A stretch of DNA of 64,000 nt from an uncultured Patescibacteria group bacterium. Lineage in GTDB: Bacteria; Patescibacteriota; Patescibacteriia; Veblenbacterales; UBA10138. The notes under the pieces are model-generated. The model saw only the letters and a list, made by a program, of their open reading frames with translations. It did no database searches and was not told the DNA's origin. Shown here piece after piece: positions 5,565-13,844 of this stretch; the first letter of the stretch is position 1; every line of letters starts with the position of its first letter. The stretch lies in the NCBI GenBank assembly GCA_937929825.1, contig CALFUV010000004.1:1042-65041 (forward strand), given 5' to 3'. The position numbers and the translations under genes were made by a program.

Positions 5565-7142
5565 TTATAATAGACTGTGACCGGTCATAGTCCTTGGTTT
5601 TGGCAAACCCATTATTTTAAGAATAGTTGGCGCTACATCAGCCAATACTCCTGCCGGTGTCAATTTAGAAAGATCATCAGTCACTAATTGACCAGTTCCA
5701 GCCTTATCTTCCAATTCCCGAGCCACAATAATACAGGGCACGGGATTATTAGTATGCTCTTTATTAATAGTCCCTGTCTGTATATCAATAATACACTCAG
5801 CATTGCCATGATCTGCTGTTACTATAACTGCCCCACCATATTCCAGTGTACCAGCAACTACCTCACCTATACATTCATCTAATATATTTATAGCTTTTAC
5901 CGTTGCTGGTAAATTGCCAGTATGTCCCACCATATCGGCATTAGCAAAATTTATTACATAAAAATCATATTTACCAGTTCTGATCTCTTGTAAAAATCTA
6001 TCGGTTATACCGCGAGCTGACATTTCCGGTTTAATATCATAAGATGACACAACTGGCGAGGGTATCAAAATATGATCCTCACCTTCATAAGCTTGTTCCC
6101 TTCCACCATTAAAAAAATAAGTCACATGAGCATATTTTTCTGTTTCAGCTAAATGAAGTTGTTTAAATCCAGCTTCCGAAATTATTCTAGCTAACGGATA
6201 TTCAATCACCTGAGGAGGAAAAGCTACCTCTACCGGCATATTTTTCTCATATTCTGTCATGGTTACAAAATGAAGTTTATTTAGGGTGTGTCGGGGAAAT
6301 TTTTCAAAACTAGGTAAAACAAAAGCCTGTGTCAATTGTCGCGCTCTGTCTGCCCGGAAATTAAAAAAAATCACCACGTCATTATCTTTAATTGTAGCTA
6401 CCGGTTTACCACTTTCAATAATTACTGTTGGTACAACTTGTTCATCAAAAACCTTGGCTTCATAAGAAGCAGTTAAACCACGAATAGCTGACACTACTGG
6501 CTTACCCTTTCCTTCCACTAAACAATCATAAGCTGCCTGAATTCTATCCCAATGATTATCCCTGTCCATAGCGTAATACCGACCCATAATCGTGGCAATT
6601 TTACCTACACCTATTTTTTTTATTTTACTAGATAATTCCTCCAAATATAATTTAGCAGAATCAAATGGAGTATCACGTCCATCAAGAAAAGCATGTACAT
6701 AAACATCTTTAAGTCCAGAATACTTAGCCAATTCCAATAGTGCATATAAATGATCAATTGAGCTATGAACACCGCCAGGACTAGCCAAACCCATAAGATG
6801 CAAACTACTACTTCTTTTTTGGGCAACAAACATAGCCTCCGTCAAAACAGAATTTGAAAAAAAGGTTTTATCTACTATGGAGTTGGTGATGCGAGGTAAT
6901 TCCTGAAATAAAATAGTGCCGGCTCCCAGTGTCAAATGGCCAACTTCACTGTTGCCTATTTCTCCCCACGGCAAACCAACTGCCTCACCTGAGGCTTGTA
7001 GGATAAGGGTCGGATAAGTAACTATTAAACGATGCCAAACAGGTGTTTGAGCTAAATTAATAGCATTAGCCCGGGAGGGCGGCGCTACCCCCCAGCCGTC
7101 TAATATCACAAGTACCACCGGCTTTGGTCTTTGCTGAAACAT
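5565..7142 (-). CDS. gpmI: 2,3-BPG-independent phosphoglycerate mutase (copy 2)
   Basis: ILDGWG, GNSEVGH, DGRD, NFRADR, AETEKYAHVT, DMVGHTG, TADHGN. Confidence 0.95.
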   Translation of the reverse strand: MFQQRPKPVVLVILDGWGVAPPSRANAINLAQTPVWHRLIVTYPTLILQASGEAVGLPWGEIGNSEVGHLTLGAGTILFQELPRITNSIVDKTFFSNSVLTEAMFVAQKRSSSLHLMGLASPGGVHSSIDHLYALLELAKYSGLKDVYVHAFLDGRDTPFDSAKLYLEELSSKIKKIGVGKIATIMGRYYAMDRDNHWDRIQAAYDCLVEGKGKPVVSAIRGLTASYEAKVFDEQVVPTVIIESGKPVATIKDNDVVIFFNFRADRARQLTQAFVLPSFEKFPRHTLNKLHFVTMTEYEKNMPVEVAFPPQVIEYPLARIISEAGFKQLHLAETEKYAHVTYFFNGGREQAYEGEDHILIPSPVVSSYDIKPEMSARGITDRFLQEIRTGKYDFYVINFANADMVGHTGNLPATVKAINILDECIGEVVAGTLEYGGAVIVTADHGNAECIIDIQTGTINKEHTNNPVPCIIVARELEDKAGTGQLVTDDLSKLTPAGVLADVAPTILKIMGLPKPRTMTGHSLL

Positions 7143-7146
7143 ACTT

Positions 7147-8724
7147 TTATAACAAACTATGGCGTTTCATTTCCTTTGGTTTATCTTTACCCAAATAATC
7201 AAGTATGGTTGGTGCTACATCGCCTAGCACACCACGACGATGACGAAATGATTTGCCACGATAAGCTGTATTATAAAGTATGAATGGCACTGGATTGTTA
7301 GAATGCTCAGTATCAACTTCCCCTGTATCACGATTTATAAATTCCTCAACATTCCCATGGTCAGCAGTAATAAACATAGTACCATGCAATTTTCTTATTT
7401 GTCCGGCTATGGTATTCAAAGCTCTATCTACTGCTTCCATAGCCAAAATACCGGCCTCTAAATTACCGGTATGACCAACCATATCTGGATTTGCAAAATT
7501 AACGGCAATAAAATCATATTTTTTGGCTTTAAGCACCCGCACTACGTAACTGGTTATTTTATCGGCTGACATCTCCGGAGTGGCGTCATAGGAATCAACT
7601 TTTGGAGACGGGACTGATACTCTATCTTCGCCGGCTACCGGATGATCATAACCACCATTAAAAAAGAAAGTTATATGAGCAAACTTTTCGCTTTCTGCTA
7701 TATAAAGCTGTCTTAATCCCCTAAGCGCAAAAGGTAAACTATTTCTAATATCACGACTAGGATAAGCTGTTAGTATGTGATCCAAATCTGGACCAAAATC
7801 AGTCAAAGCTACAAAGCATAAATTTTTTAAAACCTTCCAGCGTTTAAAAGCACCCTTATTAACTTTTTCAAAATCAATTTGCACAAAAGGCTTAGCTAAT
7901 TGCCTAGCTCTGTCTGATCTTAAATTAAAAAATATTACTGCATCATTATCACGAATAACCCCCTTGGGCATACCGCGTTTATCAGTAATTATGGCAGGAC
8001 TAATAAATTCATCACTCTCTCCTCGATTATAAGCGTGCCTAATAGCTGCTTCAGCTGATATCTCAGCTCGGCCACGTCCTCGCGTTAATAAATCATAAGT
8101 TAAAGCAGTGCGGGACCATTCTTTTTTTCTATCCATAGCATATAAACGTCCGCAAATAGAAGCTATCACTTCACCATTCTTCAATCTTTTCTTTACTTCA
8201 CCTATAAATTTTATGGCATCATAACGAGCTGAATCACGCCCATCAGTAAAAAAATGTAAATACACTCTCTTTAAACGGTGTAACTGTATTAGTTTTAATA
8301 AAGCCATAAAGTGATCAGGTGATGAATGTCCGCTATTGTAATTTGATAACAATCCCATTAAATGTAGGTTTGATTTTTCCGACTTAACATGCTCAATAGC
8401 TGTACGAAAAGTCTGATTTTTGAAAAAAGTTCCGTCACGAATGCTTTTACTAATAATCACTGCGTCCTGATCTACAATACGGCCAGCTCCAAGATTTAAG
8501 TGTCCAGCCTCTGAATTACCAACCTGACCCTTTGGTAACCCCACTGCCTCACCTGAAGCCTTAAGTAGGGCACGGGGATATTTTCCGCTAATCTCTTTAA
8601 GAAAAGGTGTGCGTGCTATTACAGTAGCATCACTATCTTCGCCGCCATGTAGATTTACTCCCCAACCATCTAAAATTGCTAAAACTACGGGATGGTATTT
8701 AGTATTAGTATTTTTTTTATCCAT
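7147..8724 (-). CDS. gpmI: 2,3-BPG-independent phosphoglycerate mutase (copy 1)
   Basis: ILDGWG, GNSEAGH, DGRD, NLRSDR, AESEKFAHIT, DMVGHTG, TADHGN. Confidence 0.95.
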   Translation of the reverse strand: MDKKNTNTKYHPVVLAILDGWGVNLHGGEDSDATVIARTPFLKEISGKYPRALLKASGEAVGLPKGQVGNSEAGHLNLGAGRIVDQDAVIISKSIRDGTFFKNQTFRTAIEHVKSEKSNLHLMGLLSNYNSGHSSPDHFMALLKLIQLHRLKRVYLHFFTDGRDSARYDAIKFIGEVKKRLKNGEVIASICGRLYAMDRKKEWSRTALTYDLLTRGRGRAEISAEAAIRHAYNRGESDEFISPAIITDKRGMPKGVIRDNDAVIFFNLRSDRARQLAKPFVQIDFEKVNKGAFKRWKVLKNLCFVALTDFGPDLDHILTAYPSRDIRNSLPFALRGLRQLYIAESEKFAHITFFFNGGYDHPVAGEDRVSVPSPKVDSYDATPEMSADKITSYVVRVLKAKKYDFIAVNFANPDMVGHTGNLEAGILAMEAVDRALNTIAGQIRKLHGTMFITADHGNVEEFINRDTGEVDTEHSNNPVPFILYNTAYRGKSFRHRRGVLGDVAPTILDYLGKDKPKEMKRHSLL

Positions 8725-11341: not shown

Positions 11342-12382
11342 TTAAACTAAGCTGGCAGCTATTTCTACCAAACGGTTAGCATAACCCCATTCGTTGTCGT
11401 ACCAAGCAATAACTTTTACCATATTACCACCCACCACTTGAGTCAAGGAAAGATCAGCAATAGCCGAAGCAGAATTACCTATAATATCGGAGGAAACTAT
11501 AGGTTCACTGGTAACTTGCAAAATACCGCGGTACCGGGAACTTTTAGCTGCTGTGCGTAAGGCGTTATTAACTTGAGCTTTAGTTACTTTTTTGCGTTTC
11601 AAAACAAATGTAAAATCTGACAATGAACCACAAGGTGTCGGTACACGAATAGATAATCCATCAAACAATCCTTTTAACTGTGGGATAGTTTCAGTAGTAG
11701 CTATGGCAGCGCCGGTTGTTGTAGGCACAATATTCTGAGAAGCAGCTCGGGCGCGACGTAAATCTTTATGCGGTCCGTCAACTAAATTTTGATCTGCTGT
11801 ATAACTATGAATAGTAGTCATCATAGCTTTCTCTACACCAAAAGCTGATACCATTACTTGAGCAATAGGCGAAATACAATTAGTTGTACAAGAAGCATTG
11901 GAAAATATGCTATCATTAATTTTTTGTTTATCTCCAGCATTAACTCCTAAAACATAAGTTGGCACTCCTCCACCCTTAGCCGGCGCAGACAATATAACCC
12001 GCCGCGCACCGGCTTTAAGGTGCCAAATCGCGTCATTTTTTTTAGTAAACCTGCCAGTGCACTCCAATACTACTTCTACACCCATTTTTTTCCAAGGCAA
12101 ACGTGCTGGTTCTTTTTCAGCCAACACCGGATACTTTTTCCCTTCTACAATTAAATTTTTGCTGTCAGCTGATACTTTTTTATCGTATAAACCATACACA
12201 GTATCATAGCGCAGTAAATGCGCCAATACCCGCGGCGCTACTAAATCATTAATAGCTATGACTCTTAAATTTGGTTTAGTAAGAGCAATTTTAAAAGCCG
12301 CTCGGCCAATGCGTCCAAAGCCATTAATAGCTATATTAATTTGCTTATTTGTTTTGGGGTTTGTTGAGATATTTGGGAGCAT
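11342..12382 (-). CDS. gap: Type I glyceraldehyde-3-phosphate dehydrogenase
   Basis: INGFGRIGR, SNASCTTNC, WYDNEWGY. Confidence 0.98.
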   Translation of the reverse strand: MLPNISTNPKTNKQINIAINGFGRIGRAAFKIALTKPNLRVIAINDLVAPRVLAHLLRYDTVYGLYDKKVSADSKNLIVEGKKYPVLAEKEPARLPWKKMGVEVVLECTGRFTKKNDAIWHLKAGARRVILSAPAKGGGVPTYVLGVNAGDKQKINDSIFSNASCTTNCISPIAQVMVSAFGVEKAMMTTIHSYTADQNLVDGPHKDLRRARAASQNIVPTTTGAAIATTETIPQLKGLFDGLSIRVPTPCGSLSDFTFVLKRKKVTKAQVNNALRTAAKSSRYRGILQVTSEPIVSSDIIGNSASAIADLSLTQVVGGNMVKVIAWYDNEWGYANRLVEIAASLV

Positions 12383-12519
12383 AAAAATTTAAGCTAATTA
12401 GTACGTATTAAGTATAACTCATCTTTGCTAATAAAAAAATAAGCTCTCTAGATATAAAGATAGCCTTATTTACTTCTTCTGAAGACATTAAGAATTTTTT
12501 AAACATTTTTATCAAGCTG

Positions 12520-13014
12520 TAAAAAGAAAGGTCTTTGCTTAACGCAAAGACCTAATTCCGTAAATTAAAACTTTTTAAAAACAGACTACTAATTTTGCTA
12601 ACCGCAAAATGGTTTTTAGATGGTACTTTTATGTGTACCTTGCCATTTGTTCGCTACACGGTTGCGTGTTTTTTCTTTTTTAACCAATGTTGGCTTATTT
12701 CCCAAAAATCCTGGGAGCCTTAGCGGCCATACCGCAAGGAAAGAAAAAATGAGTCTGTTAAGTTTTATTTACTTATTTTGCGAACTTTGCTGATTGATTT
12801 TTCTCCTGTTGAAGAATATAGTATTTTTTGTACCGAAGGTACAGCCTTTAACAAGGAGTGGCACGAAAATCGTGCAATCAGCTTTTATTATATCCACACA
12901 TCGTAAACTGATTTTTTCTCCAAACTTGGAGTAACTCACCGTTTCTCCGGAAGTCCGGCGTAATCAATTCCGCTGTGGAATATTACCAACCTAGCTAAGC
13001 TAAGTAACGGTAAT
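12520..13014 (-). ncRNA. Putative large structured non-coding RNA (~490 nt), class unknown
   Basis: Four base-paired domains with about 15 helices, a C(UUCG)G tetraloop and a possible pseudoknot; own promoter and terminator; no ORF in the track. Confidence 0.75.
12521..12553 (-). terminator. Intrinsic terminator ending the candidate ncRNA
   Basis: 10-bp perfect stem AGGTCTTTGC/GCAAAGACCT (12529-38/12544-53) followed by UUCUUUUU on the minus strand. Confidence 0.85.
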
Positions 13015-13018
13015 GATA

Positions 13019-13047
13019 ATAATATAGTGAATTATTATTTAGGTCAA
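13019..13047 (-). promoter_or_regulatory. Sigma70 promoter of the candidate ncRNA
   Basis: TTGACC (13047-42)-N17-TATTAT (13024-19); predicted start coincides with the first helix. Confidence 0.7.
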
Positions 13048-13130
13048 TAATTATATCTTGGGATAAATTGTGGAAAGATAAAAATTATATCTTGGCTTAT
13101 TTAAGCCAAAATTAATAAATATTCACAATT

Positions 13131-13844
13131 TTAATAAGGTTTAATAAATGTACCAATTGATTTACCAAAAATCACCCTTACTAAAGCATTTTTTTGCCAG
13201 CGACAAACTACCACCGGTATTTTATATTTTAAACAAAAAGCAAAAGCCGATTTATCCATTATACCTAATTTTTCCCGAATAGCTTGCGATAAGGAAATAT
13301 CCTGATACTTTACGGCATTGGAACTACGCTTAGGATCTTTTGAATAAACCCCATCAGCTGGTCCACACTTAATTATTACTTGAGCATGTATATCACGTGC
13401 CCGCAGCACCGCCGCTGTATCGGTAGTAAAAAAGGGCTTACCTGTTCCACCGGCAAAAATAACAATTTCTCCTCGTCGTAAACTGCCGCGGGCAGCGACT
13501 GTATCTAGCACTTGAACACCTGGCAAATCATAAGCTATTGGTGATTGTAAAACTGCTGATAGTTTCTTTTTTTGTAAAGCCTCCCGCAATGCTAAACCAT
13601 TCATAACCGTGGCCAACAAACCTATATAATCAGCCGTGATATCACCTAATCCTTGACCATGCGTACGCCTTCGCCAAATATTACCGCCACCCACCACTAC
13701 CGCTGTTTCTATTTTTAGCTTTCTTAATTTCCTTAACTCCTCAATTATCATACTTAAATATCTCTTCTGAATACCACCTGATTTGCTACTAAAAGCTTCG
13801 CCTGAAAGCTTAATTAACACACGTTGATATTTAAATGTTGACAT
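13131..13844 (-). CDS. pyrH: Uridylate kinase
   Basis: IKLSGEA, VVGGGNIWR, GTGKPFFTTDTAA, DGVYSKDP; follows tsf. Confidence 0.95.
   Translation of the reverse strand: MSTFKYQRVLIKLSGEAFSSKSGGIQKRYLSMIIEELRKLRKLKIETAVVVGGGNIWRRRTHGQGLGDITADYIGLLATVMNGLALREALQKKKLSAVLQSPIAYDLPGVQVLDTVAARGSLRRGEIVIFAGGTGKPFFTTDTAAVLRARDIHAQVIIKCGPADGVYSKDPKRSSNAVKYQDISLSQAIREKLGIMDKSAFAFCLKYKIPVVVCRWQKNALVRVIFGKSIGTFIKPY

Follow-up and report, generated by a model that had tools for sequence, protein, structure and literature searches.

Few bacterial RNAs are both large and ornate, and those that have been studied proved to be catalysts, scaffolds or RNA-only cages. ROOL RNAs average 581 nt and have many multistem junctions, few highly conserved bases and a single architecture with three pseudoknots; in the portions of the two reports available they occur in three phyla and lie in prophages near tRNAs (PMC5737381, PMC12286853). 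ROOL and GOLLD RNAs assemble protein-free, via kissing loops and A-minor contacts, according to the accessible text (PMC12286853). OLE (RF01071) and the raiA motif RNA, which are stand-alone, chromosomal, large and structured and whose function is unsettled, show good sequence conservation in many species according to the abstracts available. No large ornate RNA from Patescibacteria was described in the accessible text of the literature searched; 'Patescibacteria' occurs 0 times in the main text of PMC12286853 and 'Parcubacteria' 0 times in PMC5737381.

The stretch analysed here (64,000 nt; the window, to which coordinates without a prefix refer, from the genome designated G000) carries on its minus strand, between pyrH and gap, a predicted RNA of ~490 nt (Table 1). 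The locus is very probably a real ncRNA gene, and the RNA, with transcription predicted, looks like a large structured ncRNA of no catalogued family. The flanking ORFs, which we take to be pyrH (upstream) and gap (downstream) from their sequence motifs, are separated by a 748-nt spacer that contains no ORF of ≥60 aa (longest, 57 aa) and in which no SD-led ORF was found, and several non-triplet indels between G000 and its relative G001 disrupt any reading frame. The RNA is co-oriented with gap and its 3′ end lies ~140 nt upstream of that gene. One 23.6-kb contig from X1, possibly the origin of the DNA analysed, spans 12269-13300 with no differences, and contigs from X2 and X3 contribute no further variant of the RNA. 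frr usually comes after pyrH; it is not located at 12382-13131. The pyrH-gap spacer is an insertion hotspot in this family of genomes, and in G018 (L162) it holds what are presumably a radical-SAM-like gene and a Cys/Asp-rich 41-aa peptide. Downstream of gap-pgk-eno in the window are two tandem 525-aa ORFs (5565-8724), both of which we take to resemble cofactor-independent phosphoglycerate mutases.

Table 1 Predicted ncRNA gene, its parts and its flanks in the 64,000-nt window.
Feature	Position	Strand	Basis or remark
Predicted ncRNA, ~490 nt	12522..13013	-	Ends placed from promoter and terminator; homologues
Upstream flank, 237-aa ORF	13131..13844	-	ORF list
Downstream flank, 346-aa ORF	11342..12382	-	ORF list
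Palindrome TTGGCT-N6-AGCCAA	13092..13109	.	Upstream of promoter; similar in G001, G002, G008
Tandem DnaA-box-like pair TTTCCACA, TTTATCCCA	13059..13076	-	Likeness to consensus; putative DnaA sites
Sigma-70-type promoter TTGACC-N17-TATTAT	13019..13047	-	10/12 matches; TTGACC and 17-nt spacing in 5/5 carriers
5′ motif UUACCG(U)	13007..13013	-	28 nt after -35 in 5/5 carriers
D1, one hairpin	12982..13014	-	Occupies place of relatives' domain A (four-way junction) and hairpins B, C, D
D2, irregular rod, long, containing ACUUC-GG and CUCC-RAG-UUGG-GAA	12890..12981	-	In G000, G001, G002, G008
D3, multi-stem domain	12789..12882	-	Common to G000 and G001 only
Junction GUUCGC	12780..12785	-	Identical in G001; candidate pseudoknot with GCGAAC 12649-12654
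D4, ~21-bp interrupted helix around seven helices	12560..12772	-	Homologue for 5′ start only
Intrinsic terminator, 10-bp stem (12553-12529) and U tract	12519..12553	-	Removal costs 13 kcal/mol
TATACT hexamer before gap	12411..12416	-	In 4/4 carriers with gap assembled

Rfam searches gave nothing at gathering score in the window and only chance-level matches at the locus and at the corresponding loci of four relatives, in agreement with the earlier note, in which the RNA was described as unrecognised. None of the accessible text of the literature searched describes the family; supplementary motif catalogues of ncRNA screens beyond Rfam 15 could hold it. The other classes set aside at that stage are accounted for in the same way: a full-length RNase P RNA (234 bits) is present on contig C3 and a tmRNA (94 bits) elsewhere on C4, ARAGORN finds no tRNA or tmRNA in the window, and Rfam returned no SRP or group I/II intron match. 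The size, the multi-domain fold and one candidate pseudoknot would suit a ribozyme, a degenerate self-splicing intron or another mobile RNA, but any of these is highly improbable, as models of introns, RNase P and ribozymes all fail to score, the locus is single-copy in G000, lies within no gene, is not accompanied by an RT or endonuclease among the window ORFs and follows the host tree at one position (see below), and very few invariant bases are common to the members of the family. A group I-like P3/P7 reading of D4, suggested by motifs, was rejected, as it leaves no space for P4-P6 and is matched by no model.

Like ROOL, the RNA is of similar size, has many multistem junctions and few highly conserved bases, and is without a known protein partner; unlike ROOL, it is chromosomal at a housekeeping locus, restricted to one small clade and swaps whole domains. 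All-family scans of five members gave no match to the ROOL model (RF03087) at E ≤ 10 (limits 5-10), and a genome search with this model gave 0/4 carriers, its positive control being found nowhere. In place of the phage or prophage setting of ROOL there are housekeeping flanks, no tRNA in the window and no homologue in the phage and viral collections searched. GOLLD is resembled in the large multi-domain fold (830-880 nt in G008 and G011), the variable interior, the A-rich junctions and possible loop-loop contacts, while the differences again include the lack of a phage or tRNA context; rather than conserved 5′ and 3′ parts around one linker, most domains vary here, on both sides of D2. The GOLLD model (RF02032) matched at the locus in 0/4 carriers, with one 7-bit match elsewhere in G001. 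The likeness to OLE and the raiA motif RNA lies in the stand-alone, chromosomal, large and structured character of all three and in their unsettled function. Neither OLE nor the raiA motif gave a covariance-model match and, unlike OLE, which has dedicated Oap proteins, this RNA has no conserved partner gene beside it: oapA is directly downstream of OLE, and the next gene here is gap. The comparison with OLE, ROOL and GOLLD drawn in the earlier note holds for size and multi-domain style, but unlike those RNAs this one has no single shared architecture and was not found in phages.

Relatives of the RNA were found in G001, G002, G008 and G011 (with G000, the carriers). BLAST gave a match in G001 (73% identical, 260 columns, running through D2 and D3 to the beginning of D4) and one at the promoter in G002; the G008 homologue was found by reading pyrH-gap spacers and that of G011 by a search for the upstream cassette. 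A clear homologue is located just downstream of pyrH in G001, G002 and G008. The RNA precedes gap in each of the four carriers whose assembly includes that gene; the G001 assembly does not cover that side of the spacer, and no gap was found in it. G011 probably carries a family member, on the basis of the cassette, 5′ motif, position and tree, the D2 model not detecting it. The five carriers form one clade with bootstrap 86, or 94 when G013 is included, in a midpoint-rooted tree of PyrH+Tsf from all 21 family genomes in which partial sequences were retained. On sequence evidence, the RNA has been inherited vertically at one locus in this small clade.

Length varies from ~460 nt in G002 and 490 nt in G000 to 830 nt in G008 and 880 nt in G011; the value for G001 (>550 nt) is a lower bound, similarity ending ~100 nt before the contig end. 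In G001, G002 and G008 the RNA starts with a four-way-junction domain (A), followed by three hairpins. The 5′ regions of G001 and G008 have an identical abstract shape (0/150 shuffles each) and G002 nests the same parts in another way, while the junction shape of domain A alone is not rare (24-48/300 shuffles). Three 5′ domains are missing from the G000 copy, which carries D3/D4 and in which D1 may be their remnant. G008 has an insert of ~370 nt ahead of D2 (rejected as a D3/D4 homologue; best E 0.93), the G002 RNA ends after D2, and the G011 transcript embeds an SD and a 68-codon ORF. Common to 5/5 carriers are the box pair, the promoter and the 5′ UUACCG, and to 4/5 also D2, with few invariant bases across members. 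Judged from these sequences, the family is a constant frame carrying exchangeable domains. The first description of the locus included the promoter, but missed both the conserved box cassette upstream of it and the fact that the G000 copy is a 5′-shortened family member.

Directly after pyrH, three carriers have ORFs of 127-131 aa (L008:1012-1395, L003:1160-1543, L153:4553-4948) with a signal-peptide-like start, 46% identity between two of them and no Pfam family over cut-off. This upstream protein was rejected as an obligate partner, since no homologue was found in G000. In the G011 spacer, the 131-aa ORF and the small-peptide unit are separated by a further promoter-to-terminator unit, GC-rich and ~600 nt long (L153:5010-5630).

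D2 is the only domain detectably common to G000, G001, G002 and G008. It is 90-135 nt long, with small internal loops of conserved sequence. In an unguided MAFFT alignment of the four sequences, 12/35 pairs are changed on both sides, 91% of cells are paired (28-47% in slid-partner controls) and 0/500 shuffles match; as the sequences are related and the structure was drawn from them, the shuffle control overstates and this covariation is supportive, not proof. An alternative structure, in which ACUU/RAGU pairing links the loops of two hairpins, scores alike (11/32 pairs). The ensemble favours the rod for three copies (G000, G001, G008), but hairpin 2 for G002. The 5′ motif can pair with the D2 tip over 8 bp in G000 and G008 and 6 bp in G002, has no such pairing in G001 and pairs elsewhere in G011. 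Short matches of this motif to 16S rRNA were set aside, as at 6-7 nt they are within chance.

Compensatory changes, looked for in relatives, were found in D3 as well as D2. Between the G000 and G001 copies of D3 there is one two-sided change and one change to a U-G pair, and D3 was found in 0/4 other genomes tested. The two-sided change falls in the stem 12803-10/12850-58 of the initial description and argues for it, against a low predicted probability (1.2 pairs). D4 makes up nearly half of the RNA, and similarity to G001 stops at its 5′ start, so that its helices are predicted in one copy. One candidate pseudoknot was noted in G000, with a few more in the G008 and G011 copies.

The earlier note had proposed comparison with shuffled sequences, and the minus strand proved far more stable than these (MFE -154 kcal/mol, z -7.74; 0/100 shuffles as stable); the plus strand of the locus has z -6.33. 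Without the terminator z is -9.2, versus -5.6 for the best of 25 control 460-nt windows, and values for single domains are -4.2 (D2), -4.5 (D3) and -4.7 (D4) and for the homologues -5.8, -8.5, -7.7 and -7.1. Among 189 windows of 300 nt from long gaps of G000, a set that includes tRNAs, rRNA and a T-box, the locus takes ranks 48, 58 and 70, so that folding alone does not single it out. All helices named previously are present where they had been placed, and the closing helices of D1-D4 are well populated in the ensemble (expected pairs: D1, 4.9/6; D2 outer, 4.7/6, and inner, 8.5/9; D3 closing, 7.0/8; D4 closing, 20.7/21), as is the terminator (9.9/10). For two hairpins assigned to D2, CCGG/CCGG and CTCCAA/TTGGAG, the bases are there but the pairs are almost unpopulated in G000 (0.02 and 0.06 expected), the ensemble placing these bases in the long rod instead. 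Unpaired bases are 43-54% A, about half, as would be expected for A-minor docking.

Housekeeping RNAs are usually expressed as an independent sigma-70 unit with an intrinsic terminator, and this RNA is like those of 6S, SRP, RNase P and tmRNA in that respect, both the promoter and the terminator attributed to it at the outset having been confirmed. The -10 element is TA-NN-AT in 5/5 carriers, and the first DnaA-like box ends 21 nt ahead of -35 in 5/5 (in G001 this distance was taken directly from sequence, a nearer CACA also being present). The likeness of the boxes to what we take to be the DnaA consensus suggests replication-linked control, and gating of the promoter by DnaA is put forward tentatively, at somewhat less than even odds. 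DnaA-like boxes lie ahead of only 5/90 promoter-like sites in G000, compared with 2.8% of random 45-mers, which supports no DnaA regulon. The palindrome was not seen in G011, and was rejected as a genome-wide operator, a spacer of 6 being no commoner than one of 4, 5, 7 or 8. In G047, a genome of another family, the same palindrome is found with a reverse box ahead of a promoter, which is followed by ~350 nt of structured sequence poor in ORFs (L014:1499-2190); the D2 model score there is only 13.8 bits.

The DnaA-box-like sites, together with the folding of the plus strand and the many other gaps of G000 that fold well, could also be read as signs of an element that works as DNA (an origin of replication, a sink for DnaA or a hairpin repeat) and in which folding is incidental. 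Such an element is very hard to reconcile with the remaining evidence: dnaA, with boxes of its own, is on another contig of G000 and the GC skew has no turn at the locus, which is thus not a replication origin; one-sided changes preserve G-U pairs on the promoter's strand; and the RNA has no internal repeats of note and no second copy in the genome.

Orientation and position, upstream of gap in 4/4 carriers with gap assembled, would be those of a cis-acting leader (riboswitch or attenuator) of the gap-pgk glycolytic genes. This is quite improbable, since G002 has a separate promoter-ORF-terminator unit between the RNA and gap, the TATACT hexamer, a probable separate gap promoter, is conserved in 4/4, and forbidding the terminator in folding costs 8-14 kcal/mol in 4/4 carriers tested, so that no competitive antiterminator is predicted; there is also no Rfam riboswitch match.

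The RNA was found in 5/21 family genomes and was not found outside these five carriers in the relatives, class genomes and viral, phage, plasmid and metagenome collections searched. The D2 model gave strong scores in 4/61 relatives and 4/21 family genomes, all of them training members. The promoter-plus-5′ pattern matched in 3/401 class genomes and the cassette pattern in 12/301, of which three are carriers and one precedes a long gene via a ~280-nt leader, the remaining matches being in or against coding sequence. As the D2 model and the 5′ pattern miss G011 and several spacers are incompletely assembled, these results mean 'not found' rather than 'absent'. With the D3 model, 140 class genomes yielded 19 weak matches (15-21 bits), the top eight of which were short or AT-rich and partial, or without alignment. 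A metagenome scan with the D3/D4 junction motif, which is common to two members only, gave 29 matches, all motif-limited; viral collection scans gave 1, 0, 3, 0 and 0 matches, none homologous; phage and plasmid BLAST gave only 42-45-nt chance matches; and a genome-collection scan gave 30 matches, three of which scored with the D2 model, and no new sequence. A record labelled Gammaproteobacteria (L092) has a pyrH 60% identical to that of the window and this RNA family, and is probably a mislabelled or mis-binned Patescibacteria contig. The argument, made when the locus was first described, that retention in a reduced genome implies an important role is not supported by presence in 5/21 family genomes and none found outside, with whole domains that come and go; as the RNA was not found beyond one clade, 'essential' is unsupported.

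The ORF of the G011 transcript bears on an alternative in which the RNA derives from, or is a relic of, a structured mRNA for a small protein, its modules being stabilising, with the ORF lost in four lineages and perhaps little function left. The start of this ORF is similar to a unit that G002 transcribes separately further downstream (63% over 76 nt, E 0.056). The spacer would then collect units of promoter, folded leader, small ORF, folded trailer and terminator, in keeping with the SD-led ORFs of 26-68 codons in the spacers of G001, G002, G006, G009, G011, G013 and G019, most of which carry an early [AS]P[LF] motif. However, 4/5 carriers are without an ORF yet keep compensatory pairing, promoter and terminator, no such small ORF was found anywhere in G000 under the pattern searched, and the D2 and D3 models matched no further unit among those genomes of the family that were searched; the relic origin, one of two main rivals with the protein decoy discussed below, is considered unlikely. 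Small SD-led ORFs at L149:1697-1903, L153:5752-5919, L003:847-1014, L008:2105-2224, L005:1129-1272 and L007:796-927 sit in promoter-terminator units of the spacer, and most share, near their start, an [AS]P[LF]xG[YF]-like motif whose coding sequence lies in a hairpin. Three that were tested had no Pfam match, and these ORFs are possibly an unrecognised small-peptide or leader family.

The strong promoter and the form of D2, a long and irregular rod whose internal loops are conserved in sequence, are also consistent with a protein decoy or regulator comparable to 6S, Ms1 or CsrB, in which D2 or the whole RNA would mimic a nucleic-acid substrate and so titrate RNA polymerase, a ribosomal protein or a nuclease, and no 6S RNA was found in G000 (0 matches; sensitivity limited, the control being found in 5/14 genomes). 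This explanation overlaps with that of a structural RNA, but a decoy as such is rather unlikely: the RNA itself has no 6S match and, unlike the ~180-nt 6S rod with its central bubble, the shorter D2 has no large central bubble; CsrA was found in 0/5 carriers and GGA in no hairpin loop of the G000 RNA; the Ffh domain was found in 0/21 family genomes (control 14/14); and the narrow distribution is untypical of a core regulator.

The best reading is that of a stand-alone large structural ncRNA acting in trans as a folded particle, rather than a message, leader or ribozyme (probability roughly 0.45), ROOL/GOLLD-like in style but a member of neither, with D2 as core. If the locus is a real ncRNA gene, a structural or scaffold mode of action has about an even chance. 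Transcription would start from the near-consensus promoter, with DnaA acting through the tandem boxes to tie the RNA level to replication state, and independently folding domains would dock through A-rich junctions to give a compact, nuclease-resistant body. D2 would be the working surface, either a protein-binding or a self-association site, in which ACUU and RAGU pair within the rod or between two hairpin loops, possibly giving dimers or oligomers, while the variable domains may adjust size, stability or extra contacts. Loop-to-loop contacts of this type hold ROOL and GOLLD cages together, as described in the available part of that report (PMC12286853). Oligomerisation through D2, a prediction from modelled pairing, is doubtful, and both domain turnover and presence in 5/21 family genomes fit a precisely built cage badly. 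An extended version of the structural reading, also unlikely, would be a Patescibacteria 'plug-in' RNA class with a fixed DnaA-gated cassette, a core (UUACCG and the D2 switch) and exchangeable domains, sometimes with a small ORF, in which domains turn over faster than neighbouring proteins diverge and D2 self-assembly might yield a replication-coupled scaffold, store or exported effector.

On sequence evidence this appears to be a real and new RNA family, of narrow distribution and unusually modular. Since domains have been deleted and inserted naturally while the promoter stayed invariant, the five variants are a ready-made truncation series for structure work, and one that points to D2 and the 5′ hexamer as core. 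Genomes of 0.7-0.8 Mb devote 0.5-0.9 kb to such RNAs. Elsewhere in G000, further ORF-poor stretches that fold strongly are located at C7:6750-7130 (L127), C5:16380-16830 (L118), C14:28600-29080 (L125) and C29:13750-14060 (L120), none with an Rfam match at E ≤ 0.05, and this reduced genome also has a T-box leader at L120:2437-2715 (107.6 bits, above the gathering score).
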